Positions 13,800 through 60,136 of a stretch of DNA of 64,000 bases are shown here, in pieces. Every line of letters begins with the position of its first letter. Position 1 is the first letter of the stretch. A model generated the notes under the pieces. That model did no database searches. It was not told the DNA's origin and worked only from the letters and a program-made list of their open reading frames with translations. The DNA is from Candidatus Falkowbacteria bacterium (lineage in GTDB: Bacteria; Patescibacteriota; Patescibacteriia; UBA11705; JABHMO01), in assembly GCA_018693855.1 (NCBI GenBank), contig JABHMO010000043.1:72154-136153 (forward strand), read 5' to 3'. The translations under genes were made by a program, and so were the position numbers.

Positions 13800-13886
13800 G
13801 TTGATACACGTAAATATAAATTGGTTAAACGACTTAGCAGACCTCTTATTGGTCTTCTATAGCCCTCTTTAGCCTTCTTAATAAGT

Positions 13887-14171
13887 ATGGCACATAAAAA
13901 GGCAGGTGGAAGTACTAGTAATGGACGAGATTCCAATGCTCAACGGCTTGGTGTAAAAAGATACGGTGGACAAACTGTTGTATCTGGTAATATCTTGGTC
14001 CGACAACGAGGTACAAAATTTCACCCAGGTGAAAATGTAATGAAAGGTAAAGATGACACCCTTTTTGCAACTATCAACGGAATCGTTGAATTCACACATA
14101 AAAAAGTCAAAAAGTTCACTGGTAGATTAACCAAAAGAACTTTCATCAATATCGTTCCAGAAAAAAAATAA
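13887..14171 (+). CDS. rpmA: 50S ribosomal protein L27
   Basis: The protein begins [28 protein letters not shown]…[11 protein letters not shown], a clear L27 signature. Confidence 0.95.
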
Positions 14172-14183
14172 CTTCTTAAAAAA

Positions 14184-14212
14184 CTCAGCCGTAGGGCTGG
14201 GTTTTTTGTTTG
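14184..14212 (+). terminator. Intrinsic terminator after rpmA
   Basis: The hairpin CAGCCgtagGGCTG is followed by GGTTTTTTG. Confidence 0.65.
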
Positions 14213-14222
14213 ATGAATTTCA

Positions 14223-14876
14223 TTATGGCAGTTTATCAATCATATTTGTAAATTCTGAATTAAGGGATGACCAAGGATAATTCTGCCAACTTTCAGCAAT
14301 GCCGTGTTTAGAAGGGTTTCTATGGATGTAATTAAGTTTGTTCATTAAATCAGATTTATTCCTTGCATATCTATCATGAAAAGATTTATGCCATTTGAAT
14401 TTAGGATATTCCATCAAAGAATGCTTATTTATAAAATCATTTTTAAGTCTAGATAGTCTATTCCATCTATTCATTTGTTTTTCATATTGATTAATTAAAG
14501 AAATATCAATAGAATCTTTATTATCCCGAGAATGAGAATCTTTATTATCCTGAGAATGCGAGTCTTTATTATCCCGAGAATGCGGATTCTCGGGTACTGA
14601 AAGTTGATTATGGGAGAGGATTCTATTGATATTTTGGGAAGAATTCTTTTTTATTGATTTCATGATATTTGAAATGGATTCATCATTTGATCTAATGAGC
14701 ATATGAAAATGTTCTAAATTTATAATAAATGCAAAAAGATCAAAGCCATAATAATCCTTTGATTCTTTTATCTCATCAATTAAGCATCTGCTTAAAATAG
14801 GATTCTCAAAATATTCAATATTTCGAAACGTGTTTGTCGTCGTCAAATAATATTTCCCTTTATAAAAATTCCTCAT
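14223..14876 (-). CDS. REP-associated tyrosine transposase (RAYT) / IS200-like Y1 transposase
   Basis: It has a HuH motif (LEHFHML), and a C-terminal region typical of the IS200/Transposase_17 fold (…DRYARNKSDLMNKLNYIHRNPSKHG…). REP-like palindromes sit at its 5' end and inside the ORF. The start is placed at ATG 14874-14876; the ORF-track GTG start lies within the palindrome. Confidence 0.65.
   Translation of the reverse strand: MRNFYKGKYYLTTTNTFRNIEYFENPILSRCLIDEIKESKDYYGFDLFAFIINLEHFHMLIRSNDESISNIMKSIKKNSSQNINRILSHNQLSVPENPHSRDNKDSHSQDNKDSHSRDNKDSIDISLINQYEKQMNRWNRLSRLKNDFINKHSLMEYPKFKWHKSFHDRYARNKSDLMNKLNYIHRNPSKHGIAESWQNYPWSSLNSEFTNMIDKLP
14523..14594. repeat. Three tandem 24-bp units derived from the REP palindrome, lying inside the RAYT coding sequence
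   Basis: The units are atcccgagaatgagaatctttatt, atcctgagaatgcgagtctttatt and atcccgagaatgcggattctcggg. They encode the repeat HSRDNKDS/HSQDNKDS. Confidence 0.8.
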
Positions 14877-14893
14877 ATCTTTATTAATCAGTA

Positions 14894-14915
14894 CCCGAGA
14901 ATCCGCATTCTCGGG
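14894..14915. repeat. REP-like palindrome CCCGAGAATCCGCATTCTCGGG at the 5' end of the RAYT gene
   Basis: It is a perfect 9-bp-arm palindrome of the same family as the hairpins at 1061-1080, 4293-4316 and 14573-14594. Confidence 0.8.
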
Positions 14916-14949
14916 CACTGATTTGATTTTAATTATTATTAATTATAAC

Positions 14950-14979
14950 TAGGGACAACTTTGTCGTTGTCCCTAAATT
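14950..14979 (-). terminator. Hairpin terminator downstream of the 706-aa secreted protein gene
   Basis: It has perfect 10-bp arms, TAGGGACAAC/GTTGTCCCTA, followed by an AT-rich tract. Confidence 0.45.
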
Positions 14980-14997
14980 TTTGAATAAATTGTGTCA

Positions 14998-17118
14998 TTA
15001 CCAACACTGAATGCCTGGGAACCAAATCTCCCCTTCTCCATTCCCGCCGGCACGGCGATCGAATGGCAAGTTGCACTCAATCGTTGCAACCGTATGGTCA
15101 TAGCATGACCATAATGACGGGTACAGACAAGCACAGTTGAAATCAATCCATGGCTGACCTCGCAAACAGATATCACGAAGCGGGCTGTTGACGGTCACGC
15201 TCGGTGAGCCTATGGCTTCGCCAAAACTGGCGTACCAAGCATATGCCTGCATATCTGCCGGGCAAGTGAACGTGCACGTAACAAGGTCGTCCATACTTGG
15301 ACAATTATCTTGTTCTTCTGGCGAATCAGGCTCCATTTCAGCTTCAGGCTCATCCTCGATCTGATCTTGATCAGGTTGTTGAGGTGTATTACAAACACCA
15401 TTCAGACAACCAAACTGACAAGGAATGATTTCGCGATGGCAATAGCCTTCGTATAGACAGTATCCTGAAAACGAGACCTGATTATTACCATCACAACTGT
15501 CAAACGCATAGCAATCTTGCTCGGTTCGACAGCTAAGACAATGAGATACACCCTGACAAGGATCTTGTTCAGGTTCGATCTCGTCTTCAAGCTCTTCTGG
15601 TTCAGGTTCTGGCTCCACCAAATCCTGATCAGTGAACGTTTCCTGATAATAACACCCTGCCAAACCAAGACAGGTCGCGCCGTCAGGACAAAGTTTCCCT
15701 TCATCCGTAAACGAGTTACAGTTATCATCAAGCCCATTACATGACTCTGTTGCACCGGGATGCATGAGAGGATCTGCGTCATCGCAGTCCCCTTTGTTCA
15801 CAGTATACCCATCATTATCCATATCCATCTCGTTCTCATCATAGCTACCGCCAGTGATGTAGTACGAGTTCAGGCAACGATGAGCCATCTCCATTGTGAT
15901 ATCAGGGTCAAACAGCCGAAAACTGCCTTCTAGCTCGTTCTGATTAGCATGATAGAGGTATTTATCAGCATACCCCATCTCGTTGTATGCTTGCTCAGTT
16001 GAGAATGCCCGCAATCGGCCATTGCCAGAGGCAACGAAAACCACGCCGCGCCCAAATCCGGAAATCGGATAGTTGGGTTTAACAAGGGTGCCGTCACGCA
16101 CGTACAAGGTATCCATCAAGTCACATCGCCAGAAATACTGGTCTTCAGCTTGCTGATCCGTTAAAACTTGCAATCGTTCATCGATTGTCCAGCTTCGGTA
16201 AGCGAATTCTGAAGAGAACTCATACAGAGCGCAGTGACTTGAGTCGTGACTGGCTTTTTCATACAGAAGGATTGTGCCGTCTTCCACTTGGAAGAGTTCA
16301 CGAACTGGTTGCCAATCAACGATGAAACCATCATCGTAACAACTCAGTTCAAGGTCACTGACCTCAATCACCATGTCACGTGGAAAATCATGCGCTTCGA
16401 AAACCTGATCGCTATCGATCAGATTTTTCTTGCCATCAATGAGCACGTATACATCAGACTCGTTGACCGAGCTGATCAAAGCTCCATCTGGATGCCAAGT
16501 CACAACTTGCTCTTCAACGAAGAGTGAAGCACAGTTGGACGCTGTACGCCATGAATTGACGAATGTATCCAAATCGTAGCGATTGAACTGTCCAGCTGTT
16601 CGTCCTGGATCGTGAACAATCACTTCACTGTCGGTCATTCCGATGACGACCATGAAGTGTCCCAGTTTAGCTGTATTCATTTTGATATGAACAGCCACCA
16701 TGACGGGGTTGTCTTTTTCGATCTCCTGCCGGAGTTTATCGAGGTGACAGGCGTTACGTTTGATAACGAAGCCTGTTTGCCAATGATTTTCCAGCAATTT
16801 TTTGAGTTGCCCCATATTGGTTAGGTTGCCGTCATAGTGCTCAGCACCGTAACTTGTTTGCGGGACAATATAGTTGTTGTTATACAGCCAATCGATAGCT
16901 GTTTTCAGATGCTCGACCGTAGGTGAGAAATCTTGGAGATAACTCGCCATGATTAGAGCAGCGGTTGGTCCGCAATTGGAATTAAAACTCCAGTCGCCCG
17001 GAGGCGACTGGGGTAAAAATTGGACTTCGTCCAAGAGGATCTGATTGTTGTTCTCGGCCAAGACCGAACCGGTGATGGACACAAGAATCAGAATGACTAG
17101 AATAGCTACCTTTTTCAT
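14998..17118 (-). CDS. Secreted protein with an N-terminal C39-like cysteine peptidase domain and a C-terminal Cys-rich region of putative metal-binding repeats
   Basis: It has a signal peptide and a Cys/His peptidase arrangement (NSNCGPTAAL…, …GHFMVV…). The C terminus has repeated DCDD…NP…CNG.DDNC-type motifs and acidic PEPEPE linkers. GC content is markedly higher than the genome, and an AGGAG Shine-Dalgarno lies before the ATG. Confidence 0.5.
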   Translation of the reverse strand: MKKVAILVILILVSITGSVLAENNNQILLDEVQFLPQSPPGDWSFNSNCGPTAALIMASYLQDFSPTVEHLKTAIDWLYNNNYIVPQTSYGAEHYDGNLTNMGQLKKLLENHWQTGFVIKRNACHLDKLRQEIEKDNPVMVAVHIKMNTAKLGHFMVVIGMTDSEVIVHDPGRTAGQFNRYDLDTFVNSWRTASNCASLFVEEQVVTWHPDGALISSVNESDVYVLIDGKKNLIDSDQVFEAHDFPRDMVIEVSDLELSCYDDGFIVDWQPVRELFQVEDGTILLYEKASHDSSHCALYEFSSEFAYRSWTIDERLQVLTDQQAEDQYFWRCDLMDTLYVRDGTLVKPNYPISGFGRGVVFVASGNGRLRAFSTEQAYNEMGYADKYLYHANQNELEGSFRLFDPDITMEMAHRCLNSYYITGGSYDENEMDMDNDGYTVNKGDCDDADPLMHPGATESCNGLDDNCNSFTDEGKLCPDGATCLGLAGCYYQETFTDQDLVEPEPEPEELEDEIEPEQDPCQGVSHCLSCRTEQDCYAFDSCDGNNQVSFSGYCLYEGYCHREIIPCQFGCLNGVCNTPQQPDQDQIEDEPEAEMEPDSPEEQDNCPSMDDLVTCTFTCPADMQAYAWYASFGEAIGSPSVTVNSPLRDICLRGQPWIDFNCACLYPSLWSCYDHTVATIECNLPFDRRAGGNGEGEIWFPGIQCW

Positions 17119-17147
17119 GATTTTTCTCCTGTTTGCGTATTGCTAGT

Positions 17148-17777
17148 TTAGAACGAGAAGTTCTGGATGAAGTCTTTGAAAACTTCTTGAGCTTGACCTT
17201 CGTCAACTCCATTCACATGGAGAGCGATGTCGTAGACAAACTCGCCTGATCGGATGAAGTATCTCGGATCACCAAGATAGACGGCGTTGTGAGATGTCGC
17301 TTGGACAGTCTCATTATCGGTCAAAAAACTCAGGTCAACGGTTTCAAAGCCGGTCACGCTATCAGGATAGTACTTCGCGAAGAAGTCATCCCAGCCCTCT
17401 GAGCTTTGAGTTACGTTAACATTGATCAGAGCGTAGTAATTGGTATACTTCTGTGAATTGATCTCACTCTTGCCACTGACTTCGATATAGTAGTCGTCAG
17501 GGGCAGAGCCACCTAGGACAACTTCTTTGTCAGTGTTTTTTACTAGTAAAGAGTAGATCAGCTCATCATTCTCACCATGACGTTGTGCCAACTCGACGAA
17601 CCAGCCGTCTGGGTAGTTGAACTCAAAATCATTTGCAGTGTAAGCAATCCAATCACCGGCTGTAGTAGGCTCGTTGTCTTGCTTGCCTTCTTCGTACCGA
17701 GTACACCCGGAGATGAAGAGAGCTGTAGCGATCACAACGGCTACGATCAAAAAGTTACGAAATTGAAATTTACGCAT
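17148..17777 (-). CDS. Hypothetical lipoprotein
   Basis: Its signal peptide ends in a lipobox (FISGC). The gene is GC-rich and an AAGGAG Shine-Dalgarno lies 9 nt upstream. The start was moved to the internal ATG. Confidence 0.5.
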   Translation of the reverse strand: MRKFQFRNFLIVAVVIATALFISGCTRYEEGKQDNEPTTAGDWIAYTANDFEFNYPDGWFVELAQRHGENDELIYSLLVKNTDKEVVLGGSAPDDYYIEVSGKSEINSQKYTNYYALINVNVTQSSEGWDDFFAKYYPDSVTGFETVDLSFLTDNETVQATSHNAVYLGDPRYFIRSGEFVYDIALHVNGVDEGQAQEVFKDFIQNFSF

Positions 17778-18042
17778 ATCGATTTTCTCCTTTTCGAGGT
17801 TTGTTAGAATGGGTCCTCGTTTTACCCTTAACATACTAACGTTAGCATGCTAAAACTGATTGTCAATGGACAAGAAGGCCACAGCCTTCGTTTCCTATTT
17901 CGATTAAACCACACAAAGATTATTTTCCCCACGAAAATGTTATCCACACTCGTCAGAATATAAAAAACAGCGATTTTACTAAGGGAAAATCGCGTTTTTC
18001 TTGTCGAGGTAGGTCGTCAAGATTTTAGAGTTAAATTATTAC

Positions 18043-18080: not shown

Positions 18081-18088
18081 CTATGAAA

Positions 18089-30044: not shown

Positions 30045-30135
30045 AAGCTAAATAAAACAAAAAAATAATTTTGTTCTTTAAACAAATGATTTCACTAAAT
30101 TTATTATACCATAAATTCACTCTTCTAACTAAAAA

Positions 30136-30150
30136 AATAGTGGATAATAT
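30136..30150. promoter_or_regulatory. Candidate operator palindrome GTGGATAaTATCCAC upstream of the TSP3/giant-protein operon
   Basis: It has perfect 7-bp arms around a single central nucleotide, about 90 bp upstream of the 30044 start. Confidence 0.3.
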
Positions 30151-30249
30151 CCACATTCTTTTCCACTAAAATTAGTTAAATATTTTTCGTTTGATTAATC
30201 GCGAAAAATTGTACTTAAAACAACGTTAGTGATAAAAGTTTACTTAACG

Positions 30250-30620
30250 AAATTGGATTCCTGCCTACGCAGGAATGACGATTTGAAGGTACGTTATTCC
30301 AATACACCAAGGGGTCTGGGGGGCGACTGTCTAAGCGTCATTAATCAACGCACAAAAAGTCGCTAAATAGAACATAGTGAGTTTTAGCTCCCCAGCAGTT
30401 TTCTTGCCTTGCCGAAGCTTATGTAATAGCGAAGGCGGGTGGTTACTTTTGGCGCCAAAAGCAACTCGACCGAGAGGGCGAAAAATCAACGCAGCAAACA
30501 ATATTCAATTTTCGACATATTTTCACCGAATCCACAAATTTTACCTGGTGTATTATAAAGATCCCTCCAGCCCATCCTACGCTAATAGCTTCGGAGGGCA
30601 GGCAAGGTCGGGATGACAAA
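30250..30620. ncRNA. Candidate structured RNA of unknown class in a 600-bp gene-free, GC-elevated spacer
   Basis: It has long-range complementarity (CCTTGCCGAAGCTTAT…ATAGCG at 30407-30437 with CGCTAATAGCTTCGGAGGGCAGGCAAGG at 30572-30603), an internal palindrome CTTTTGGCGCCAAAAG, and GGG/CCC-rich stems. No convincing ORF is present. The strand is undetermined. Confidence 0.3.
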
Positions 30621-30640
30621 AGATTAAGAGAACAAACACA

Positions 30641-32108: not shown

Positions 32109-33119
32109 TTATTCTTCAAAATCAAGTTTCAAATAATCTAAGACGTCCAGTTTCTTTTCTTCAGAAATAAACTCTGGTTGATTATCGTTAATTTTAATTG
32201 GGTAAAAATCTATCTTCTTAACACCCTCCAAAGAAAAAGAAACTTGAGCAATCACACCTTGCAAGGCGGTTGCTGGCCAATTTTCAGGATAGATTAAGTT
32301 ACCTAAACCGTATAAGATATACTTGTTTTTATATACTTCTGTCTGCTGAACGAGATTTGTTCCATTACCAATAACTAAATCAGCTCCTAAATCAATCGCC
32401 CTGCGAGCAAACGATTCCTGAGTTTTTGAGACGGTTCGTTTATTCTCAAGACCTGAATGCATAGAAACAATCAAGAAGTTAACTTGTTCACGATACTTTT
32501 TCATATCTTTTTCCAAATCTTGCAGATTCATCATAAAAACACCAGCCGTAGTTTCGGTTGCTTGATGAATTGCTGGACCATAACTGTAACAAAGGAATCC
32601 AAACTTAACGTTCTCAACTTCTACAATTGCCAATTTATTCTGATCACTATTCACTGATGCCCCACAAAAATCGATCTCACTATTTTGCAACAGCTGAACA
32701 GTTTCAATCAAATCATCTTGACCATTCTCCATCACCTTATCATTCGCTAAATCAACAATTGCAATATTATTATCAGACAAGAAGAAACTGTCCTCTAACG
32801 GATTGTTAATATTAGCAAAAACAAAATCTGAATCCACTAATTTTTCTTTAACTAATTGCGGTAAAGTTGAACGCTGTCTCTCAGGACTTAGCGTCAAATC
32901 TGGCGCGAAAGTTACTTTTATTTCCAAATCCTGTCTCTGTTCAAGCAACTCTTGAGCTCTTTTTTGTTTCACAAACTTATCAAGCGAAATCAAACCATCG
33001 CCCTCAAGTTGCGACACAGTGTAGATATCATCTCCGTCCAGTCCACCATTCTGCCACATTAGAAAAGCACCTGCAGCGAGGCAGACTAGACCGAATAGGA
33101 TTATAATTATTTTTTTCAT
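32109..33119 (-). CDS. CapA/PGA_cap-family metallophosphatase-like protein with an N-terminal membrane anchor
   Basis: The pattern …LIVSMHSGLE…ADLVIGNGTNLVQ matches the CapA signature, with the HPH triad replaced by NGT, so it may be non-catalytic. It has an N-terminal TM anchor. Confidence 0.55.
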   Translation of the reverse strand: MKKIIIILFGLVCLAAGAFLMWQNGGLDGDDIYTVSQLEGDGLISLDKFVKQKRAQELLEQRQDLEIKVTFAPDLTLSPERQRSTLPQLVKEKLVDSDFVFANINNPLEDSFFLSDNNIAIVDLANDKVMENGQDDLIETVQLLQNSEIDFCGASVNSDQNKLAIVEVENVKFGFLCYSYGPAIHQATETTAGVFMMNLQDLEKDMKKYREQVNFLIVSMHSGLENKRTVSKTQESFARRAIDLGADLVIGNGTNLVQQTEVYKNKYILYGLGNLIYPENWPATALQGVIAQVSFSLEGVKKIDFYPIKINDNQPEFISEEKKLDVLDYLKLDFEE

Positions 33120-33284
33120 AGAATCGCAAGGAGACTATACGGGGCCAGCCCGCAATGTCTACGCATAGCGTTGCTGGCGGGCTAAACGAGGCCATTAAGG
33201 AGGCTAACCCCAAATTATGTCACTCCGGACACGCCTGCCCTCCGTAGTTTTCTAAACGAAGGTGGGATCCGGAGTCTGGCCAAG
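33120..33284. repeat. Composite GC-rich leader/intergenic element (AGAATCGCAAGG-GGCTATA motif, a 52-bp conserved core, and an ACTCCGGA…TCCGGAGT hairpin)
   Basis: The 52-bp core GGGGCCAGCCCGCAATGTCTACGCATAGCGTTGCTGGCGGGCTAAACGAGGC is near-identical at 45446-45500. The AGAATCGCAAGG(R)G(R)CTATA part is shared with the hisS leader at 59231-59272. The hairpin is shared with the element at 57826-57856. Confidence 0.75.
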
Positions 33285-35920: not shown

Positions 35921-35928
35921 ATAAAGGT

Positions 35929-36080
35929 GATGCTAATCTGCGAATGACATGCGAATGCCGCGAACGCTTCGCTATGCTAATTTACGAATTACACGAATAA
36001 TAATTATTATTATTCGTATCATTCGCAAGGACATTCGCATCATTCGCATGTCATTCGCAGATTCGCATCGCGTTCCGCGA
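35929..36080. repeat. Copy 2 of the roughly 160-bp palindromic intergenic element
   Basis: It reads ATGCTAATCTGCGAATGACATGCGAATGCCGCGAACGCTTCGCTATGCTAATTTACGAATTACACGAATA…, then TATTCGTATCATTCGCA… It starts 9 bp upstream of the htrA start codon. Confidence 0.8.
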
Positions 36081-36134
36081 TTAACTAAATAGAACCAAAA
36101 CTTACGTTCTGGTCAAATTATATATATTTTAAAA

Positions 36135-36407: not shown

Positions 36408-36416
36408 ATAGACGCG

Positions 36417-36535
36417 ATACTAATCCACGAATGCATGCGAATGATACGAATGCTTCGCTATACTAATTTACGAACTACGCGAATAATTGAGTTCGTGGTG
36501 CGATTATTGGTATCGCGATTAGTATCATTAGTATT
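36417..36535. repeat. Copy 3 (more diverged) of the roughly 160-bp palindromic intergenic element
   Basis: It reads ATACTAATCCACGAATGCATGCGAATGATACGAATGCTTCGCTATACTAATTTACGAACTACGCGAATA… and fills the spacer between nrdG and the small ORF. Confidence 0.7.
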
Positions 36536-36551
36536 ATTTGTATATTAGTAT

Positions 36552-37244: not shown

Positions 37245-37431
37245 AGAAGATTTAAATTACTTGTACCTTTATATGTTCATCTTATCTTGATGAGTTGAGC
37301 AAGTCAAATATTTTAAATTAGCCTCATTGATAGCCTCATATAGCCCCATTAGTATTAAAAAAGCCTAAAGCAATGAGTCTTAAATTTTTAGATACTAAAA
37401 ACTTAGGACTTAAAACTTTAGGCAGAAGCAC

Positions 37432-37578
37432 CTATTCTTTTGTAGCGCAAACTTTATAGTTAGTTCTATCATCAAATTCTGCCTTTTTTCCATTGTTCCA
37501 TCTGTTGATAGGACTTAGATAACCAACGACTCTAGAATAAACCTCGCATTTTGTTCTTTCTAATTTTTGTGAAGCCAT
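37432..37578 (-). CDS. Separate 48-aa ORF encoding the NrdD glycyl-radical motif (C-terminal NrdD fragment)
   Basis: My own translation gives MASQKLERTKCEVYSRVVGYLSPINRWNNGKKAEFDDRTNYKVCATKE. The YSRVVGYL…WNNGKKAEF stretch matches the class III RNR glycyl-radical consensus (E. coli …YSRVTGYLG…WNDGKRAEF). It is absent from the ORF track because it is shorter than 60 aa. Confidence 0.6.
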   Translation of the reverse strand: MASQKLERTKCEVYSRVVGYLSPINRWNNGKKAEFDDRTNYKVCATKE

Positions 37579-37664: not shown

Positions 37665-39833
37665 TTATTTTTGAATTGGACTCTCAGGTTGAACAACTGG
37701 GGCAGGGGCTGCTTCTTGTGTTTGAATAGGGCTTTCAGGTTGAACTACTGGGGTAGGAACTTCCTCTAATTTTTGAGTTGGAGCTTCGACTTGATAGTTT
37801 TGTCCTTCGAAATAACCTTTTTCTTGATCACAGTAAGGACAGTATTCGTGCTCACCAGCAATATAACCATGGACTGGGCAAACACTGAAAGTTGGAGTTA
37901 AAGTAAAGTATGGTAATTTGAAATTCTCAGCAATTTTTCTAACTAATGCCTTTGTACTTTCAACTGAAGGCAACTTTTCACCAACAAACCCGTGCAAAAC
38001 TGTTCCACCTGTATATTTTGTTTGCAGGTCATCTTGCAGCTTAAGTGCTTCAAAAATATCATCAGTATGTCCAACTGGTAGATGTGATGAATTTGTATAG
38101 TATGGATCAGCACCTTGAGTTTTAACAGCTGTTTCATTAGCCGCGATAATCTCTGGATATTTTTCTTTATCAAGTTTTGCGAATCGGTATGATGTTCCCT
38201 CAGCAGGAGTTGCTTCTAGATTAAACAGTTCATTTGTTTCATTCTGATAATCCATCATCCTCTCTCTCATGAAATCAAGAACCTGACCAGCGAACCGGTG
38301 TCCTTCTTCTGTTGTTATATCAACTTTTAATAAATTGATAATCGCTTCATTTAAACCATTTAAACCGATTGTATTGAAATGATTTTTCCAATAAGTACCA
38401 AATCGTTCTTTTATTGCAGACAGATAATGTCTTGAATATGGATAAAGTCCTCCATCAATGAATTTTTCTAGAATTGTTCTCTTAATCATCAAACTTTCCT
38501 TACCAAGATCCATCAATTCTGACAATTGAGTAAAGAACTCTTCCTTCGTATTGGCAGCATATCCAATTCGAGGTAAATTAATCGTTACTACCCCAATACT
38601 TCCTGTTAATGGATTCGCACCAAACAGTCCACCACCTCGTTTTCGAAGTTCTCTATTATCAAGACGCAGACGACAACACATACTTCTTGCATCGTCTGGA
38701 CTCATATCACTGTTAATAAAGTTTGAAAAATAAGGAATACCGTACTTGGCAGTCATATCCATAATCTGCTCAATAATTGGCGCGTCCCAGTCCCAATCAC
38801 TTGTTACATTATAAGTTGGGATAGGCCAACTCAGAACTCTTCCTCGTTGATCACCTTCAAGCATTACCTCAATAAACGCTTTGTTAAACATATCCATCTC
38901 AACCTGGAACTCACCATAAGTCTCTTTCTGAGGTTTCCCTGATATAATAACTGCTTCATTTGCTAATGTTGATGGAGAAAATAGGTCTAAAGTTACATTT
39001 GTAAACGGTGTCTGGAACCCAACTCGAGTTGGTACGTTCATATTAAACAAAAATGTCTGAACTTTCTGTTTGACTTCTTCATAAGTTAATCCATCGTATC
39101 GAATAAAAGGTGCCAGTAATGTATCTAAACTAGCCACAGCTTGAGCTCCAGCAGCTTCACCTTGCAGAGTATAAAAGAAATTAACTAACTGACTCAAAGC
39201 ACTTCCAAAATGTTTCGCTGGTTTACTCTCAACTTTGCCACGAACACCGCCGAAACCACGGACCAAAAGGTCCTGAAGATCCCAACCGCAACAGTATGGA
39301 CTTAGAAGTTGCAAATCGTGAATATGTAAATCGCCAGAAACATGAGCGTTTTTAATATTTTCTGGATAGACTTTGTTCAACCAATAGTTAGCACTAATAG
39401 TTGAAGCAACGTAGTTATTCAGCCCTTGTAGAGAGTAGTCCATGTTTGAGTTTTCTTTTACTTTCCAATCAAGTTGTTTCAGGTATCCTTCCATTAGTTC
39501 ATCAGAATTAACCATTGACTCAATGTCTCTCATCTTTGATCTCTGATCACGATAAATTATGTAAGATTTAGCTACTTTGATCAGTTTCTGTTCAATTAAA
39601 ATCTCTTCTACGATATCTTGAATCTCCTCAACCGCAGGGATTGATCGTTCATGAAATTTCTTATTAATCCTTTCAACTACTAAATCAGCAACAGCTTCAG
39701 CTTTCTCCTGGTTTGGTTCACCAACAGCTCGCATTGCATTAAAAACAGCGCTATTTATATTATCTTGATCAAAATCAACAATTTTATTGTTTCTTTTCAC
39801 GATTTGGATAATCTGATTGCCTTGATAAACCAT
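37665..39833 (-). CDS. nrdD: Anaerobic ribonucleoside-triphosphate reductase (class III), main body, with an N-terminal ATP-cone
   Basis: It has an ATP-cone at the N terminus, the class III RNR core, and a Cys-rich Zn-ribbon region (CPVHGYIAGEHEYCPYC). It then ends in a Pro-rich repeated tail (PVVQPESPIQ x2) without a glycyl-radical motif. Confidence 0.9.
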   Translation of the reverse strand: MVYQGNQIIQIVKRNNKIVDFDQDNINSAVFNAMRAVGEPNQEKAEAVADLVVERINKKFHERSIPAVEEIQDIVEEILIEQKLIKVAKSYIIYRDQRSKMRDIESMVNSDELMEGYLKQLDWKVKENSNMDYSLQGLNNYVASTISANYWLNKVYPENIKNAHVSGDLHIHDLQLLSPYCCGWDLQDLLVRGFGGVRGKVESKPAKHFGSALSQLVNFFYTLQGEAAGAQAVASLDTLLAPFIRYDGLTYEEVKQKVQTFLFNMNVPTRVGFQTPFTNVTLDLFSPSTLANEAVIISGKPQKETYGEFQVEMDMFNKAFIEVMLEGDQRGRVLSWPIPTYNVTSDWDWDAPIIEQIMDMTAKYGIPYFSNFINSDMSPDDARSMCCRLRLDNRELRKRGGGLFGANPLTGSIGVVTINLPRIGYAANTKEEFFTQLSELMDLGKESLMIKRTILEKFIDGGLYPYSRHYLSAIKERFGTYWKNHFNTIGLNGLNEAIINLLKVDITTEEGHRFAGQVLDFMRERMMDYQNETNELFNLEATPAEGTSYRFAKLDKEKYPEIIAANETAVKTQGADPYYTNSSHLPVGHTDDIFEALKLQDDLQTKYTGGTVLHGFVGEKLPSVESTKALVRKIAENFKLPYFTLTPTFSVCPVHGYIAGEHEYCPYCDQEKGYFEGQNYQVEAPTQKLEEVPTPVVQPESPIQTQEAAPAPVVQPESPIQK

Positions 39834-40050
39834 AGATATAGTAATTTAAGATTAATTTTAGAAAATTAGAGAGAAAAAAAACCAGTACCCACTTGTACCT
39901 CAGTTTTCAAACTTTTCTTACCTCTATTTTACCCCATATCGAACCTTACAGCAACTTTCACAAATACTAATTTTATCATCTAAATTTCAATCAAAATCCA
40001 GCGTCGTAAATTTCTACGTTTTAAACTGTGGATAAAGTTGGGAAGCGGAG

Positions 40051-40110
40051 CGAAGTAAATCGAGGTAAATCGAGGTAAATCGGAGTGAATCGCAGTTAAT
40101 CATAATGATT
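40051..40110. repeat. Tandem array of 10-bp units (GTAAATCGAG-like) upstream of nrdD
   Basis: The units include gtaaatcgag x2, gtaaatcgga, gtgaatcgca and gttaatcata. Confidence 0.7.
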
Positions 40111-40246
40111 AATCGATAACTAGAAAAACTAACCTCCTATAGCCTTCTTTGCGACTAAAAAAGCACCCGCAATTTTACTCACGAGCACTTTCATATGATT
40201 AAAGTTCGTACTGTTCGTACATTAGTTCGTAGTTCGTAATATTACC

Positions 40247-41890: not shown

Positions 41891-41930
41891 TTTACTTCGA
41901 TTTACACCGATTCACTTCGATTTACTTCCC
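41891..41930. repeat. Tandem array of 10-bp units (TTTACTTCGA-like) in the ftsA-ftsZ spacer
   Basis: The units are tttacttcga, tttacaccga, ttcacttcga and tttacttccc. These are the reverse-complement orientation of the family at 11321-11362. Confidence 0.7.
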
Positions 41931-44118: not shown

Positions 44119-44238
44119 ATTGCGGATGTGCGGATCATTTGCAGATTATGCAGATTAATATTTTGATAAAGTAAAATAATGTCTATTACAATTAGATATG
44201 ACTTTAAGAATGGGATTCCAATCCGCAATATCTGCAAC

Positions 44239-45435
44239 CTAAGGGCACGCCGCAAACTCACAATCCGGCCCAGTCCTCCCAACAGAACTACCATCCGGAC
44301 AGATCTTAGCTTCCTCGGTACAAGCAATTACATTATCAATCGGTTCATCTGGCGCAACAGGTGCTTCAGCAAAGTCCCCTTCAATAAAGTTAAAACTATC
44401 AACCATCATCTTAAACATTGCAGGATAAAAAGCCTCTACTTTCTGACCAATTCCATAGTTGATAACGTAGACCATGTCTTGCTTTGCAATGAAAACAGTA
44501 AATCCATCCGGTGATTCAATAACTGGGATATCGTAATGATTGTTGTAAAATTTCAACTGAGTTCTAGTTGCTCGTGGATTCAACCGTAGATACCAATCAA
44601 CAATAGATTCTTCAGAATTCTTGTTCGCAATGAATACATTAACAAACTCATTATTACTTGAAGTAAACAGTACATCTTCAGTATCAAGAGGATCAAGTGA
44701 ATCAGCTAACCAACTTTTTGGATATAGAAGTTTATAACTGTACATTGTATTCTCATACTCTGCAACAAAATCACCTTCTTCTAACTTTACCATACTTTGA
44801 GTTGGACTGTAAAAATTCATTAACTCAGAACCATCAGCATAACCATCACCATCTGAATCAGCAATTGTTGCGTTTGTGTTAATTAAAAGTTCTTCCTGAT
44901 CAGTCAGACCATCATTATCACTATCAACTGATGCCATAACATTTACATTGAATCGATTTGCATAACTATAATCAAACTCTTTCGCAGGTACTAAATTATC
45001 AGGTAAAACATCATCAACTGGATCATCCGCTGGCTCCTCTGTATCTAATTCATCAGGTTGTGGTTCATCAGCATCATCTTGATCAACGACTGGATCAACT
45101 GTCTGAGGTTCGAAAACAACTTGATTTTGATTATCTTCACTAGAAGGTAAATATGTATAGACAAGTAATCCAATTGAAGCTAAAACTAAAATTGCTAGAA
45201 TTACCATGATAAGAATAACACCCAGTTTACTCTTCTTATGTTTAGGTGCGCCGTTAGAAGGTTTAGAAGCAGTTGCAGTCCCCTTTGATCCTTTTGTCGC
45301 AGAAACTGTTTTGTCCCCTAAATAATACTCCATGGGCATAGTATGAACTTGCTCATCTTGTGGAGATTTTTCTTGTTCTTCTTTAAGCGGTTTATTTACT
45401 TTATTGTCTAATTTTGGTTGTTCATCGTCAAACAT
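44239..45435 (-). CDS. Single-pass membrane protein with TSP3-like Ca-binding repeats and a C-terminal Cys-containing region
   Basis: It has a TM helix (GVILIMVILAILVLASIGLL), an acidic linker, and DSDNDGLTDQEE / DSDGDGYADGSE repeats. The start was moved to ATG 45433-45435 because the ORF-track N terminus is encoded by the 52-bp repeat element. Confidence 0.55.
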   Translation of the reverse strand: MFDDEQPKLDNKVNKPLKEEQEKSPQDEQVHTMPMEYYLGDKTVSATKGSKGTATASKPSNGAPKHKKSKLGVILIMVILAILVLASIGLLVYTYLPSSEDNQNQVVFEPQTVDPVVDQDDADEPQPDELDTEEPADDPVDDVLPDNLVPAKEFDYSYANRFNVNVMASVDSDNDGLTDQEELLINTNATIADSDGDGYADGSELMNFYSPTQSMVKLEEGDFVAEYENTMYSYKLLYPKSWLADSLDPLDTEDVLFTSSNNEFVNVFIANKNSEESIVDWYLRLNPRATRTQLKFYNNHYDIPVIESPDGFTVFIAKQDMVYVINYGIGQKVEAFYPAMFKMMVDSFNFIEGDFAEAPVAPDEPIDNVIACTEEAKICPDGSSVGRTGPDCEFAACP

Positions 45436-45522
45436 AGGAAAAGGGGCCAGCCCGCAATGTCTACGCATAGCGTTGCTGGCGGGGCTAAACGAGGCTATAC
45501 GAGGCTATAAAAGGCTTTCGGA
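45436..45522. repeat. Second copy of the 52-bp GC-rich core plus GAGGCTATA direct repeats, immediately upstream of the start codon
   Basis: The sequence GGGGCCAGCCCGCAATGTCTACGCATAGCGTTGCTGGCGGGGCTAAACGAGGCTATACGAGGCTATAAAAGGC is near-identical to 33140-33192. Confidence 0.75.
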
Positions 45523-45534
45523 TAGTCCTTGTAA

Positions 45535-46119
45535 TTAATTTATATTCAAATTGTCTTTAGCTTCTTGAAAATTCAATAACTTACCTGCCCCGTTGGGGTT
45601 GTATCCGGATTGAACCTCTTGTCCGTCAAGATAACCATCATTGTCACTATCTGTATCATTTGGATCTGTTTTATAAAACATAATCTCATCTCGATCAAAA
45701 AGTCCATCATTATCACTGTCAGCCTTGCGAGGATTTGTTTTATACTGTTTTTCTTCCTCGTTAGTTAATCCATCAAAATCAAAATCATCACCACTTGCTT
45801 CTTCAATCTGTTTTTTGACTTCATCAACATCTTCATTCATTCCTAAACCTTCAGTTTGATCAACCTGCGCTTCTTCATAGTCTTCTGGGACTGGAATATA
45901 CGTCTGATGATAAACTTTATTTCGATAATAAGCCAAAGCTCCTCCAGCAATTACAACTACTACTACAATAACAATAACAATCTTCCATGGAAACTTTTTC
46001 TTTTCTAAAACAGGTTCTGGACTAACATCCGAACTTTCAACTTGAGATTGTACTGGCGCTTCTTTCGGCCCAGCATCAACCTCATCAAAAATATCCTCAA
46101 CTTGTTTATCTTCATCCAT
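45535..46119 (-). CDS. Single-pass membrane protein with TSP3-like Ca-binding repeats
   Basis: It has a TM helix (WKIVIVIVVVVVIAGGALAYY) and DSDNDGLFDRDE / DSDNDGYLDGQE repeats. It is paralogous to 29217-30044 and 44239-45435. Confidence 0.6.
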   Translation of the reverse strand: MDEDKQVEDIFDEVDAGPKEAPVQSQVESSDVSPEPVLEKKKFPWKIVIVIVVVVVIAGGALAYYRNKVYHQTYIPVPEDYEEAQVDQTEGLGMNEDVDEVKKQIEEASGDDFDFDGLTNEEEKQYKTNPRKADSDNDGLFDRDEIMFYKTDPNDTDSDNDGYLDGQEVQSGYNPNGAGKLLNFQEAKDNLNIN

Positions 46120-46127
46120 ATATATTG

Positions 46128-46292
46128 ATGCTAATCTGCTAATGATATGCGAATGCCGCGAACGCTTCGCTATGCTAATTTACGAATTACACAAATAGTT
46201 AACTATTCGTAGTATTCGTGTAATTCGCAAATTAGCATCTCAGCAATTTTCGTATCATTCGCATGCTTTTCGTGGATTAGCATCGGTTTACT
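46128..46292. repeat. Copy 4 of the roughly 160-bp palindromic intergenic element
   Basis: It is near-identical to copies 1 and 2. It spans from 9 bp upstream of the TSP3 gene start to the TAA stop of the 2830-aa gene; the stop lies inside the element terminus …CATCGGTTTA, as also seen in copy 1 with nfu. Confidence 0.8.
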
Positions 46293-56930: not shown

Positions 56931-57024
56931 CACCTCCAGGAATGAGTTAATACAGTTAATAAAGTTAAAATAGGTTAAACTAAATTAACAAAACATTAAC
57001 AATTTCACTCAAATATCAATTTTT

Positions 57025-57468
57025 TTATTTTAGTTTTTCTTCTAAAACTTTTCTAACTACTCCGCCATCAGCCTGGCCACCCACACGCTGCATGACTGCG
57101 CCCATGACTTTTCCGAAATTAGATTTATCTTCATCAGACAAAGTTGTTAAAACTTCATCAACAATCGAACCGATTGATCCTTCATCTAACTGTTCAGGTA
57201 AAAATTTTTCTAAAATTTTTATTTCAGACAGTTCTTTATCTGCCAAATCAGACCGATCAGCAGCTGAAAAAGAATCAGCAGAATCTTTTCTTTTCTTAAC
57301 TTCAGTCTTCAAGACAGCTAGAACTTCTTCATCTTTCAACTCTCGTTTAATTTCGATTTCTTTGTTCTTTAGACTACTTTTCAGCATTCTCAAAACAGAC
57401 AAATCTAGTTCTTGTTTTGCTTTGAAAGCAGTTAAGAATTCTTGTTCGATTTGCTTTTGTAATTGCAT
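57025..57468 (-). CDS. yqeY: GatB/YqeY-domain protein
   Basis: It encodes 147 aa and its C-terminal region (…GKVMGAVMQRVGGQADGGVVRKVLEEKL) is typical of YqeY. Confidence 0.7.
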   Translation of the reverse strand: MQLQKQIEQEFLTAFKAKQELDLSVLRMLKSSLKNKEIEIKRELKDEEVLAVLKTEVKKRKDSADSFSAADRSDLADKELSEIKILEKFLPEQLDEGSIGSIVDEVLTTLSDEDKSNFGKVMGAVMQRVGGQADGGVVRKVLEEKLK

Positions 57469-57514
57469 AGTAATTATAGCAAAAATTTCTGTTAATTAAA
57501 AACAGTTGTACACA

Positions 57515-57766
57515 TTATCGACCACCTCTTCGTTTACCTTTAAATCGATCTTCAGGTAACTTGCCGATTTTCTTTAGAAATTGAATTTTGTCCTTGTATT
57601 TCTTTCGAGCAACTGCAACAGTCTTTTGCAAATTTCGACTTTCATCCTTTGCGTGATAACGTTTTGATTTGAATTCAAAAATCACACCACTTTGAATAAG
57701 TCTCTTGTTAAATCGTCTCAAAAATGACTCAAATGATTCCCCCTTTTTTCGTTTTGCTTCTAACAT
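57515..57766 (-). CDS. rpsU: 30S ribosomal protein S21
   Basis: It encodes 83 aa, is strongly basic, and matches the S21-like pattern (…ESFESFLRRFNKRLIQSGVIFEFKSKRYH…). Confidence 0.7.
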   Translation of the reverse strand: MLEAKRKKGESFESFLRRFNKRLIQSGVIFEFKSKRYHAKDESRNLQKTVAVARKKYKDKIQFLKKIGKLPEDRFKGKRRGGR

Positions 57767-57780
57767 GTTATAACTCCTTG

Positions 57781-57856
57781 ATTATTAGAGGGCTAGAGAG
57801 GGCTACAGAAGGCTTTATCTATACTGAGTCACTCCGGCAAAAGCCGGAGTCTGACC
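57781..57856. repeat. GGCTA-motif direct repeats plus the ACTCCGGC…GCCGGAGT hairpin in the rpsU leader
   Basis: It reads GAGGGCTAGAGAGGGCTACAGAAGGCTTT followed by GAGTCACTCCGGCAAAAGCCGGAGTCTGACC. It is the same family as the element at 33120-33284. Confidence 0.7.
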
Positions 57857-57895
57857 AGATTCAAAAGCCATCCTTATCCTTTTTAACCATCCTAA

Positions 57896-59230
57896 TTATT
57901 TTTTCTTCTTATAAATTTCTTTTAATCTTTTTTTAACTTCAGGAACAACGTTACTTAGACTGATGACTTCTTGGATACCGCTATCTTCTTCTCTGACAAT
58001 GATAGTGCCTTCGGTTACTTCCTTTTGACCTAGAATCAGAATGATTTTTGCTTTACATTTTCGAGCTAGATCCAACTGTGATTTCAGTGCTCCTTTTGAA
58101 AAATTAGCTTTGACTGAAAAATTCTCTGCTCGCAAAGCTTCAAAGAAAGTAAATGCTTTCTGTCTGGCCTGTTCACTCAATTGAGCAACAAACACATCCG
58201 GACCCTTTTTTGCTGGTAATTCAACTTGTTGATGTCGGATTTCAGAGACTAAACGTTCTATTCCAAAACTAAATCCTGACATTGGAGTACTTTCTCCACC
58301 TAGCATTTCAATTAAATTATCACAACGACCACCACCTGCTAAAACAATAGTTTCTCTTCCTTCCTGAGGAGGTGTTGTTATTTCAAAAATAGTTTTCGTA
58401 TAGTAATCAAATGTTCTTGAAAGAGTTGGGTCAAGAGTGTATTCAACTTTCACTTCATCTAGATACTCTAAAACCTTAAATAAATGGTTACGACAGTCAT
58501 CACACAAGAAATCAACTGTTTGCGGAGCATCTTCAAATGCTTTTACACAACGTTGACTGTTACATTGAAAAACTTTCAATGGATCTTTTGTAATCAACTT
58601 TCTTAGATCAGCAGGGATAGCAGCTCGTTTTGATTTCAAGTACTCTGCTAAAACTTTTTTATATTCTGGTCGACATAACGTACAACCGACACTATTTAAT
58701 TTTACTTGTCCATTTATTCCTAAATTTTTCATCAAGAAATGTGCCATGATAACAAGTTCACCATCAATTGCCGCTGACTCGTCTCCAACAATTTCGAAAT
58801 CAACTTGAGAGAACTGTCTCAGTTTATTTGTTTCTATTTTACCTTGACGGAACATTGATCCCCAAGTATAAACTTTTAACGGCATCTGAGAAGCGCTCAT
58901 GTTGTGATCGATAAAAGCTCGAGCAATAGAAGCAGACGCTTCTGGTCTCAAACAAAGTTTTTCACCTCGATCAGTAAAAACAAAAGCCTCTTTTTCTAAA
59001 ACATTATTCTGCCTAAATAAAGAATGATTAAAAAGTTCAAACTTTTCCAAAAGTGGAGTTTCCATACGATGATAACTGTAATCAGAGATCAATCGTCTAA
59101 CCTGATTCTCAACAAAATTCCAATGCTTCGCATCATTTGGCAAAACATCTTTCATACCCTTAACAACGGGTGGAGTTTTAATTGTCTTTATAGGTTCTCT
59201 TGGTTGTTCTTCTTTTTTTCTTCTAGGCAT
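57896..59230 (-). CDS. hisS: Histidine--tRNA ligase
   Basis: It has class II aaRS motifs, a HisRS-specific N terminus (…GMKDVLP…), and a C-terminal anticodon-binding domain. Confidence 0.9.
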   Translation of the reverse strand: MPRRKKEEQPREPIKTIKTPPVVKGMKDVLPNDAKHWNFVENQVRRLISDYSYHRMETPLLEKFELFNHSLFRQNNVLEKEAFVFTDRGEKLCLRPEASASIARAFIDHNMSASQMPLKVYTWGSMFRQGKIETNKLRQFSQVDFEIVGDESAAIDGELVIMAHFLMKNLGINGQVKLNSVGCTLCRPEYKKVLAEYLKSKRAAIPADLRKLITKDPLKVFQCNSQRCVKAFEDAPQTVDFLCDDCRNHLFKVLEYLDEVKVEYTLDPTLSRTFDYYTKTIFEITTPPQEGRETIVLAGGGRCDNLIEMLGGESTPMSGFSFGIERLVSEIRHQQVELPAKKGPDVFVAQLSEQARQKAFTFFEALRAENFSVKANFSKGALKSQLDLARKCKAKIILILGQKEVTEGTIIVREEDSGIQEVISLSNVVPEVKKRLKEIYKKKK

Positions 59231-59272
59231 AGAATCGCAAGGGGGCTATAGGGGGCGAAGGAGGCTATAGAA
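59231..59272. repeat. GGCTATA-motif leader element abutting the hisS start codon
   Basis: The sequence AGAATCGCAAGGGGGCTATAGGGGGCGAAGGAGGCTATAG shares a 25-nt near-identical leader with the capA-like gene at 33120-33140. Confidence 0.75.
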
Positions 59273-59359
59273 AACTACTTTTGAAAAAGCAAAATCCTAT
59301 TTATTTAGTCTCCTCACCGCACAGCCAATTTGTATATTTGTATTTAAGCTCTAATAAAT

Positions 59360-59941
59360 CTAGTATTCGATATTATCAAAAAAAGTTAATCTCCAGACAG
59401 GCCAACCTCGGAACCAGACTTTTCCGACGATTAGATCTCGATCAACTGGACCAAAACTTCGAGAATCAAGACTGTACTCTCGATTATCACCCAAAACATA
59501 GTATTCATCAGCGCCAAGTGTCCACGTAGTAGTACCTCTGGTTCTAGCACCGTCTTCTAAATAGATTGCTTCATCAAGAATCATTTTCTTATCATCACTA
59601 TGCACGTAAACCATGTTATCTTTTATTTCAACTTTTTCACCCGGTAGTCCGATTATTCTTTTAATGAAATACTGTGATGGATCTTTTGGATATTTGAAAA
59701 CGATAATATCACCTCGGACAGGATCACCAAATCTATAACCAATTTCATTAATGATCAAATACTCATGATCATAAAAACTTGGCTCCATTGAAGCACCTTT
59801 TACATAAAAGGGCTGTATTAAAAAATATCTAACTGGAATAATGATAGCTAATGAAACAGCTACAACCTTGACTAAATCCCAAACAAATTGCAGAGTTTTC
59901 TGCATTGGGCTTAATTCTTCAAAATACTCTCTTTCACTCAT
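59360..59941 (-). CDS. lepB: Signal peptidase I
   Basis: It has the S26 catalytic regions (…KGASMEPSF…, …GDNREYSLDSRSFGPV…). The start was moved to ATG 59939-59941; upstream of it lies a GGCTATA-type motif at 59950-59978. Confidence 0.85.
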   Translation of the reverse strand: MSEREYFEELSPMQKTLQFVWDLVKVVAVSLAIIIPVRYFLIQPFYVKGASMEPSFYDHEYLIINEIGYRFGDPVRGDIIVFKYPKDPSQYFIKRIIGLPGEKVEIKDNMVYVHSDDKKMILDEAIYLEDGARTRGTTTWTLGADEYYVLGDNREYSLDSRSFGPVDRDLIVGKVWFRGWPVWRLTFFDNIEY

Positions 59942-60136
59942 AAAACAAAGAAGGCTATACAGGGCTAAAGAAGGCTTAAAAATAAACAAAATTAAGACCT
60001 TTTTCACTCTCTTAGGTGTTAAGTTGCCATTATTATAACAAATTTTCAAACTTAATGCAAGTTTATCAAATAGAATGTTTTGTTAATAAATTTACAAAAA
60101 GAAAAAGACGACGCAAGACGCCGTCACTAGCAATGT

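Follow-up and report, generated by a model that had tools for sequence, protein, structure and literature searches.

What is the role, if any, of a short GC-rich repeat that recurs beside the start codons of several genes in a tiny bacterial genome? The question is raised by 64 kb of DNA from a Falkowbacteria-like Patescibacterium (64,000 nucleotides [nt] of contig JABHMO010000043.1, 36.3% GC; hereafter the window), in which a first-pass annotation had pointed out a GGCTATA motif family in 5' leaders and suggested that it might be a shared promoter, a translation-initiation element for genes lacking a Shine-Dalgarno (SD) sequence, or a small mobile leader cassette. We find that the repeat, here called the A element, lies in 5' untranslated regions (5'-UTRs), ends at a fixed distance from ATG codons, and is predicted to fold little. 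It is, as far as the sequences compared reach, private to one species, and it is one family among many intergenic tandem-array families in the window and its clade. On balance, we tentatively favour the view that A elements are fast-evolving, pyrimidine-rich, unstructured leader modules for SD-independent translation initiation.

Sequence and distribution of the A element

The recurrence of the motif is real. GGCTATA occurs 11 times in the window compared with 3.7±2.0 in shuffled sequence, and a two-unit pattern, TAGCCYYSTNTAGCC with at most one mismatch, gives 11 matches at eight loci against 0.02 expected, all 11 of them intergenic. Tandem repeat finding (TRF) and a regular-expression scan resolve these loci into head-to-tail decamers in two to four copies, in which a 5-bp core with variable flanks repeats at a strict 10-bp spacing (10, 10 in the majority of arrays, with 9 and 12 as exceptions). 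Nine aligned copies fit a single ordered three-unit consensus, AAGCCTTC-TnTAGCCCTC-TATAGCCYYC-TT in the mRNA sense, and are therefore best seen as homologous copies of an element of about 30 nt and not as independent expansions. The element is pyrimidine-rich and G-poor in sense and has about 50% GC in a 36% GC genome; TAGCC is in the mRNA sense at six of the eight loci, including that of rpmA, which lies on the opposite DNA strand. The copies are as follows.

13857-13879, + strand: A element of two units, TATAGCCCTC TTTAGCCTTC, in the rpmA 5'-UTR; ATG at 13887, last TAGCC ending 12 nt before it
33120-33140, - strand: proximal leader of the capA-like gene, GTATAGTCTCC TTGCGATTCT-ATG, with degenerate units
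33175-33212, - strand: distal degenerate A units of the capA-like gene, TTAGCCTCC TTAATGGCCTCG TTTAGCC
37318-37352, + strand: reversed A element of three units, which reads GGCTA when followed in the direction of the neighbouring minus-strand genes
40130-40156, + strand: reversed copy of 1.5 units, CCTCCTATAGCCTTCTTTGCGACT, just downstream of the ftsZ terminator
45481-45519, - strand: A element of four units upstream of the second copy of a duplicated core, in the 98 nt that separate genes 45535-46119 and 44239-45436
57787-57816, - strand: A element of three units between hisS and rpsU, upstream of the SD AAGGAG (57779-57774)
59231-59272, - strand: hisS leader, comprising the A element TATAGCCTCC TTCGCCCCC TATAGCCCCC (array 59240-59272) and TTGCGATTCT
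59947-59979, - strand: A element of three units in the lepB 5'-UTR; ATG at 59941, last TAGCC ending 11 nt before it

The first-pass annotation had placed its copies directly upstream of start codons. This applies to rpmA, hisS, lepB, and the capA-like gene; the array at 45490-45522, on the other hand, is located after the stop of 45535-46119 and before the start of 44239-45436, with the core intervening, and the array of rpsU, although present, stops 24 nt short of the ATG, with a normal SD coming after it. Only the reversed copy at 37318-37352 had been noticed, and that at 40130-40156 had been overlooked. The former sits between a terminator hairpin with its run of six T and the -35 element TTGACT (37307-37302) of the nrdG-activase promoter.

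Position relative to promoters and start codons

Sigma-70-type promoters can be read from the sequence upstream of two arrays.

13771-13799, + strand: rpmA promoter, TTGACA-17-TAGAAT
60060-60032, - strand: lepB promoter, TTGCAT-17-TATAAT

As the distance from each to its ATG is about 80 nt, the arrays fall inside the 5'-UTR and are not themselves promoters. Conservation between the window and its sister species is about 90% in the lepB terminator and promoter, and the 5'-UTR downstream of them is unalignable.

From the end of the last TAG(C/T)C to the annotated ATG there are 12 nt for rpmA, 11 for lepB, and 13 for both hisS and the capA-like gene, and inside the two core copies an ATG follows TAGCC by 13 and 14 nt. 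Six cases are thus found at 11-14 nt, against a background probability of 0.048 for an ATG to fall in any 3-nt window. The array end itself lies 6-8 nt before the AUG. Because the spacers between array and ATG differ (AATAAGT, TGTTTT, GCGATTCT), the distance points to a positional constraint and not merely to a copied block. Equal occurrence in coding DNA, or no enrichment at starts, had been named in advance as evidence against a leader role; in the window the element is intergenic only, with this placement before ATG at six of the eight loci.

The starts that arrays abut have no SD, and rpsU, which alone keeps one, has its array further off. An SD-like (GGAG-like) sequence precedes only about 7 of 47 window genes, and most have none. 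In several genes TATAAT lies so near the ATG that their mRNAs must be leaderless or nearly so. The 16S rRNA gene is outside the window, and a canonical anti-SD is taken from the GGAGG-type SDs seen at genes 18975, 60137, and rpsU. On that assumption the A element does not qualify as an SD site: its mRNA reading, CCUUCU, CCCUCU, or CCUCC, is like the anti-SD (CCUCC at the 16S 3' end) and lacks complementarity to it.

The duplicated core

A 52-bp core had been described as duplicated. The duplication is genuine; only 41 bp are exact (33141-33181 = 45443-45483), and these are followed by a 1-nt indel and 11 more common bases. Hairpins of the form ACTCCGG…CCGGAGT, also noted previously, are indeed present twice.

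33141-33192, - strand: core copy 1, the 41-bp duplicate and GCTAAACGAGGC
45443-45495, - strand: core copy 2, with an internal ATG (45468) in frame with open reading frame (ORF) 44239-45436
33116-33166, - strand: upstream ORF (uORF) of 16 codons, MRRHCGLAPYSLLAIL and stop, starting inside core copy 1, 13 nt after TAGCC
33222-33275, - strand: long-insert ACTCCGG…CCGGAGT hairpin, located between the A units and the stop codon of prfB
57831-57850, - strand: hairpin of the same type, ACTCCGGC-TTTT-GCCGGAGT
59306-59326, - strand: degenerate inverted A-like partner, GGCTGTGCGGTGAGGAGACTA, pairing with the hisS array (z = -4.2)

The core is predicted to fold into a hairpin in which an A unit, TTTAGCCCGC, pairs across a loop with an inverted unit, GCGGGCTGG. 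At copy 1 the uORF ends in a TGA that overlaps the ATG of the capA-like gene (ATGA), and at copy 2 the internal ATG gives an in-frame extension of 11 codons to ORF 44239-45436 (45436-45468), the orthologue of which starts at a downstream MFDD… in one relative. This arrangement at both copies may be a coincidence, with a joint chance estimated at a few percent, or a portable start cassette. Outside the core, the leaders of hisS and the capA-like gene have 21 of 24 nt in common, ATG included, in agreement with the near-identity reported before. The 10-mer of the ACTCCGG hairpin alone is not beyond chance (two matches, 1.0 expected). The hairpin at 57831-57850 is enclosed by pairing of the purine-rich segment 57853-57895 with the rpsU A element, and this fold has z = -3.0, mostly from composition.

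One family among many tandem arrays

When all intergenic arrays with a period of 6-13 and at least 2.8 copies are counted against dinucleotide shuffles as baseline, the window holds 19, where shuffles give 0.3, and 96 kb of intergenic DNA from the clade hold 203, where shuffles give 8.9±3.1. The shuffles take the place of a baseline density from unrelated loci of a genome-collection scan, which is biased in that every such locus was chosen for an array. The density is 2.1 per kb in intergenic and 0.13 per kb in coding DNA. Periods of 7, 9, 8, and 10 are seen 106, 42, 33, and 14 times. Arrays show a roughly twofold enrichment in the 12 nt next to a start or a stop codon, with distances that are approximate because genes in the relatives' loci are simple longest-ORF calls. 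CGAAT-type arrays occur in six genomes and GTTAA-type arrays in five, whereas GGCTA occurs in the window only. The other families in the window and its neighbours include the following.

11320-11361, 40034-40115, 41891-41928, 60810-60866, and in relatives L007 2284-2330 and L137 8716-8774: arrays of a second decamer family, GTAAATCGAG
41531 and 56945: 9-bp arrays of AGTTAAAAA
10924-11090, 35924-36075, 36414-36551, 44119-44160, 46126-46290: TGCGAAT/ATTCGCA-type blocks in direct and inverted order
37585: TAGAAAT heptamers

The second decamer family, TTTAC/TTCAC-N5 in the mRNA sense, also forms 10-bp arrays and is likewise tied to start codons, ending in TTCAC-N6/7-ATG in four leaders (lytR in the window and in the sister species, the NifU-like gene at 11313, and a thyA-fusion gene just outside the window) with four different spacers. 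The lytR leader including its TTYAC array is about 92% identical between window and sister species, compared with about 77% for coding DNA. The TGCGAAT blocks form long hairpins (41-nt arms, 88% complementary), and the fold of spacer 35921-36134 has z = -12. At different genes, CGAAT/CGGAT-type arrays are found in at least six to seven related genomes. The AACTWTTTW family 5' of ftsZ resembles the epsilon sequence of T7 gene 10.

Across the clade, regions from -45 to +15 with an array end at most 15 nt from the start are predicted to fold less than other leaders (-4.4 versus -7.4 kcal/mol; z of +0.28 versus -0.25, Mann-Whitney p = 0.005), and slightly less than composition-matched shuffles. 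The lepB leader has a fold z of about 0 and the lytR leader is also unstructured. A G-poor unit in direct repetition is unable to pair with itself.

The window sequence is found identical in marine metagenome contigs and in the metagenome-assembled genome GCA_018656425.1. The order lytR-x175-lepB-hisS-rpsU-yqeY-pilin is kept in relatives whose HisS proteins are 83, 73, 64, and 63% identical. GGCTA-N5-GGCTA is absent from these four syntenic relatives and from 80 loci around FtsZ homologues (49-84% identity), about 84 loci in all, and about 6 kb of leftward extension (L137, L138) holds no further canonical GGCTA array, only B-like and GAGGMTGG arrays. At orthologous positions the relatives have other tandem repeats or plain A/U-rich leaders. 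The repeats read as follows.

Sister species (L007), lepB leader: TTACCACTTC TGTCACTTC
Sister species, rpsU leader: TGCGGAT in four copies
L008, hisS leader: TTTTAGAC in four copies
L009, hisS leader: ACTTTATA in three copies

At rpsU, the SD and the start codon are conserved across relatives and all sequence further upstream is replaced. Six contigs of the same species show no array indels or change in copy number, although at 99.8-100% overall identity they are too close to inform.

A scan of a genome collection with RGGCTANANNRGGCTANANARGGCT gave 44 matches, nearly all of them single or in unrelated tandem arrays of unrelated taxa and none from the source species, and a scan of viral contigs for the core gave no match. 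Comparable intergenic GGCTA/GGGTA arrays came from one locus of that scan only, L049 (DAIRCK010000001.1) of candidate division WOR-3. There, decamer arrays of 10-11 units lie directly 3' of genes (800-915, 2120-2220, 3214-3285) and grade from TTCACCC through TTTACCC and TTCGCCC to TTTAGCCC, and a TTGAAA-TATAAT promoter is preceded, at about 100 nt, by GGAATTT heptamer arrays. Arrays of this kind thus arise outside Patescibacteria as well. In the searchable literature we found no description of such arrays in Patescibacteria, and the broader pattern of arrays anchored to SD-less starts in this lineage appears to be undescribed.

A candidate module for SD-independent initiation

What leads us to prefer the leader module is the combination of a 5'-UTR location, the lack of an SD, sense orientation, a fixed distance to the AUG, and low predicted folding. 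Transcription of the array would begin at ordinary sigma-70 promoters further upstream, and the array would form the distal part of the translation-initiation region in SD-less genes. Its G-poor, pyrimidine-rich direct repeats would remain unfolded before the AUG and could serve the 30S subunit as an open landing or standby site, with protein bS1 as a plausible mediator. The exact sequence of the array would be unimportant and free to turn over between species. Arrays may arise by tandem duplication through slippage and spread among leaders by recombination, and the pyrimidine-rich orientation alone may be tolerated beside a start codon, since the opposite strand is full of SD-like GGAGG/GAGG.

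Among known systems, SD-independent enhancers and standby sites are a close parallel. These are pyrimidine- or A/U-rich leaders that bind S1, such as the epsilon sequence UUAACUUUA of T7 gene 10. The A element likewise lies in the 5'-UTR directly upstream of SD-less starts, is not complementary to the anti-SD, and would, on predicted folding, provide a single-stranded pyrimidine-rich tract. It differs in being made of ordered tandem decamers of about 50% GC that are dispersed as a family in one species, and any enhancement is putative.

Several observations weigh against this reading. The independent spacing events number about four, and two pairs of copies are recent duplicates. Two A copies are reversed, and the one at 37318-37352 lies upstream of a promoter and is hence probably not transcribed. 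The exact 10-nt period has no obvious rationale at the RNA level, and start-proximal arrays in the clade are not consistently G-poor (C exceeds G in 38, G exceeds C in 32). The arrays are not required either: SD-less orthologues in the sister species (HisS 83% identical) and in relatives use unrelated leaders. Spacers at orthologous positions measure about 0-50 nt where they lack arrays; where they have them, they measure 150-500 nt and are predicted to fold strongly (z to -12). Lengths that vary so widely suggest that arrays and hairpins are dispensable accretions. The only comparable GGCTA arrays, those of WOR-3, lie 3' of genes.

Of the three proposals in the first-pass annotation, a translation-initiation element is therefore the best supported, as arrays abut SD-less starts at a fixed distance; its weakness is that the element is dispensable, species-specific, and absent from the same genes in relatives. 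The idea of a mobile cassette survives in so far as homologous three-unit copies are dispersed in one species, but no hallmarks of transposition were found. A leader element, possibly a copied cassette, is thus what is left of the earlier view, which had missed the broader system of intergenic tandem arrays.

Alternative explanations

It is quite possible, if less to our liking, that the A element has no function of its own and is a neutral or selfish interspersed minisatellite, a by-product of slippage, template switching, recombination, or some mobilizing activity. Arrays would pile up in the few noncoding sites of a streamlined genome, and their orientation and spacing would reflect which insertions are tolerated beside a start, namely those without an SD-like or AUG-containing strand and without structure. 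The restriction of the family to one species and its absence from all relatives examined fit this explanation, as do orthologous spacers that hold other arrays or nearly vanish (0 to 500 nt) and reversed copies that lie away from start codons. The exact 41-bp copies and the near-identical hisS and capA-like leaders imply recent copying, the GGCTA unit arose in another phylum in 3' positions, and long spacers are as strongly palindromic (z to -12) as template switching predicts. An IS200-like Y1 remnant and REP-like palindromes further indicate that interspersed repeats have been active in this genome. Neutral accretion accounts less readily for a fixed ATG distance with differing spacers in two families, for a lytR leader array that is more conserved (about 92%) than the flanking coding DNA (about 77%), for CGAAT- and GTTAA-type arrays that persist in five to six genomes, or for a copy number that is constant in six near-identical strain contigs. 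No terminal inverted repeats or flanking target duplications are seen on inspection of the nine-copy alignment, and a miniature inverted-repeat transposable element is rejected on the same grounds.

Like REP/BIME, ERIC, BOX, RUP, and Correia elements, the A element is short, richer in GC than its genome, strictly extragenic, multi-copy (eight loci in 64 kb, all intergenic), and lineage-specific; elements of this type sometimes occur as inverted pairs between co-transcribed genes, and the window has a Y1 transposase remnant. A units are, however, direct decamer repeats and not palindromes of 20-40 nt, with only the 41-bp core being hairpin-like; they are anchored to starts in 5' leaders and not to 3' ends; and the Y1 ORF (14223-14918) is flanked by CCCGAGAATGCGGATTCTCGGG and not by GGCTA units. 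Borg elements of Methanoperedens reportedly carry intergenic tandem repeats, and the resemblance extends to dense short tandem repeats in the intergenic DNA of an uncultivated lineage with fast turnover between relatives. Borg repeats are near-perfect, longer, and often within genes, whereas those described here are imperfect, of 2-5 copies and 7-10 nt, chromosomal, and often abut a stop or start.

An operator array acting at the DNA level, in which three direct repeats in 10-bp phase are bound cooperatively by a repeat-reading regulator, seems unlikely to us. Candidate regulators would be winged-helix proteins of OmpR/PhoB type or ribbon-helix-helix proteins of MetJ/Omega type, which would block or activate transcription of a regulon of rpmA, rpsU, hisS, lepB, the capA-like gene, and a TSP3-like gene. 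Direct-repeat operators of this kind include the CpxR box GTAAA-N5-GTAAA, multi-repeat ArcA sites, the metboxes of MetJ, and the heptads of Omega. The A element resembles them in having two to four short head-to-tail cores at strict 10-bp spacing (known operators having at least two at 10-11 bp) with variable flanks, at several genes, and the second decamer family has the form of the CpxR box. The copy at 37318-37352 lies 12 bp upstream of a -35 element, at about -48 to -80, a classical activator position, and in the lytR array the core of the unit has been conserved between the sister species. That copy is, however, the only one upstream of a -35; six of the eight lie downstream of the transcription start and abut the start codon, where a bound protein would be a constitutive roadblock on essential genes. 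Their distance is fixed to the ATG and not to the promoter, they are not conserved at orthologues, such a regulon would need inventing in a single species, and the commonest period in the clade is 7 and not 10-11. A Pfam scan of 20 window proteins gave no candidate regulator, only an Rrf2 regulator at 11830-12213.

A more far-reaching proposal, which we consider decidedly unlikely, is that the start-anchored families (TAGCC-, TTTAC/TTCAC-, CGAAT-, GTTAA-, and GAAATT-type) are sequence-addressable substitutes for the SD and transcription-factor layer, each read by a dedicated repeat-binding RNA or DNA protein. The leaders would thereby mark out small post-transcriptional regulons, subject to rapid rewiring from one species to the next, and the 41-bp core would act as a portable start cassette (TAGCC-13 nt-AUG-short ORF) coupling ribosomes into the downstream gene.

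We find it highly doubtful that the array is one arm of a long imperfect stop-to-start stem, pairing with a degenerate purine-rich inverted copy upstream and acting in processing, mRNA stability, termination, or translational coupling. Such pairing is predicted at hisS, whose array has a cognate inverted partner (z = -4.2), and at rpsU, where the array lies in the outer stem; the core is itself a unit-loop-inverted-unit hairpin. In the clade, stop- and start-proximal 40-mers are complementary (-15 kcal/mol or lower) in 23% of cases compared with 12% for non-cognate pairs (p = 1e-4), stop-proximal arrays are A-rich in sense (53 versus 13), and arms of 41 nt with 88% complementarity are formed by the TGCGAAT blocks. 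In shuffle controls, however, hisS is the only one of six A arrays to have a partner beyond chance and composition; cognate flank pairing of A arrays is on average no better than non-cognate (-18.7 versus -17.4 kcal/mol); and the lepB and lytR leaders are unstructured. The relatives have no homologous sequence in which covariation could be sought, and Rfam gave no match in the whole window at gathering thresholds and nothing relevant at E<=5. Stop-to-start coupling hairpins are a real minority architecture in the clade and leave the A family unexplained. Three-frame stop codons, elemental pause sites, Rho rut sites, and TRAP/HutP-like UAG repeats were also considered and, judged from sequence, fit some array families and not others.

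That TATAGC(C) is a -10 element giving very short leaders, the shared promoter of the first-pass annotation, is extremely improbable: TTGCTT-17-TATAGC can be read before the first hisS unit and TTACAA-17/19-(T)TATAG(C) before gene 44239, and the capA-like copy reads TATAGT, but TATAGC lacks the invariant -7 T (the final T of the -10 hexamer), good canonical promoters stand upstream of rpmA and lepB, and a consensus scan found no excess of promoter-like sites (61 versus 63.8).

Other features of the window

The window carries housekeeping genes typical of small genomes, mostly on the minus strand (gatB, miaA, murD, ftsW, iscS/nifU, rpmA, ksgA, prfB, htrA, nrdD/G, ftsZ/A, ybeY, rpsU, hisS, lepB, lytR, der), and two giant proteins with a T4SS-pilin domain. 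Homologues of its HisS and FtsZ are labelled Parcubacteria, Falkowbacteria, or Patescibacteria. ARAGORN detected neither tRNA nor tmRNA genes in the window.

With regard to start codons, TCT stands immediately 5' of ATG in 6 of 47 genes (capA-like, prfB, nrdG, nrdD, ftsZ, hisS), well above the expectation from composition, and may be a start-context preference. The good SD of rpsU, which encodes bS21 (A/GGGAG, 6-8 nt 5' of ATG), is kept in five of five genomes (window, L007, L008, L009, L010); most other genes have none. This recalls the autoregulation through bS21 and the anti-SD described in Bacteroidia.

Other repeats are present as well. ORF 14223-14918 has a partial IS200-like Y1 transposase domain (E = 8.6e-7) and is flanked by perfect 28-nt inverted copies of CCCGAGAATGCGGATTCTCGGG (14573-14600, 14888-14915), a palindrome that also follows other genes as a terminator-like hairpin (1055-1080, 4294-4313); a 24-bp tandem repeat in three copies (14512-14587) adjoins it. 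Together these look like a REP/RAYT-type system distinct from the GGCTA family. In the sister species, two Avd/23S-rRNA-IVP-like genes (214-582, 8358-8708) are inserted beside pilin genes, one of them bracketed by inverted (T/A)ATCACG/AACACGT heptamer arrays of about 10 copies (8254-8322, 8747-8774).

A gene-free stretch of 600 nt (30045-30640) has an AT-rich part with DnaA-box-like TTATCCAC/GTGGATAA pairs (about 30140-30165) and a part of about 48% GC (30240-30620) with hairpin-forming segments. On the other strand, its segment 30589-30621 is a degenerate relative of the hairpin at 33218-33247, and hence a third relative of the ACTCCGG…CCGGAGT hairpin. The stretch has no Rfam, tRNA, or tmRNA match and no similarity within the relatives' loci, and it may be an uncharacterized RNA gene or a repeat cluster. 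Lastly, the anaerobic ribonucleotide reductase is apparently split: a 48-amino-acid ORF (37432-37578) corresponds to a C-terminal NrdD-like segment downstream of the 722-amino-acid nrdD product (37665-39833), and a relative with the same split has a separate PF13597 ORF of 53 amino acids.

Significance

Patescibacteria (the Candidate Phyla Radiation) have tiny genomes with few recognizable regulators and, in the case studied here, few SDs, and how translation starts and is tuned in them is largely unexplored. In this clade, short tandem repeats make up a large share of the scarce intergenic DNA, and in this species two repeat families at a fixed distance from SD-less starts provide a testable handle on SD-independent initiation and on the evolution of leaders. 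If, instead, the arrays are neutral, conspicuous shared motifs upstream of genes in such genomes need not be regulatory, and the arrays would be a marker of very fast intergenic turnover.

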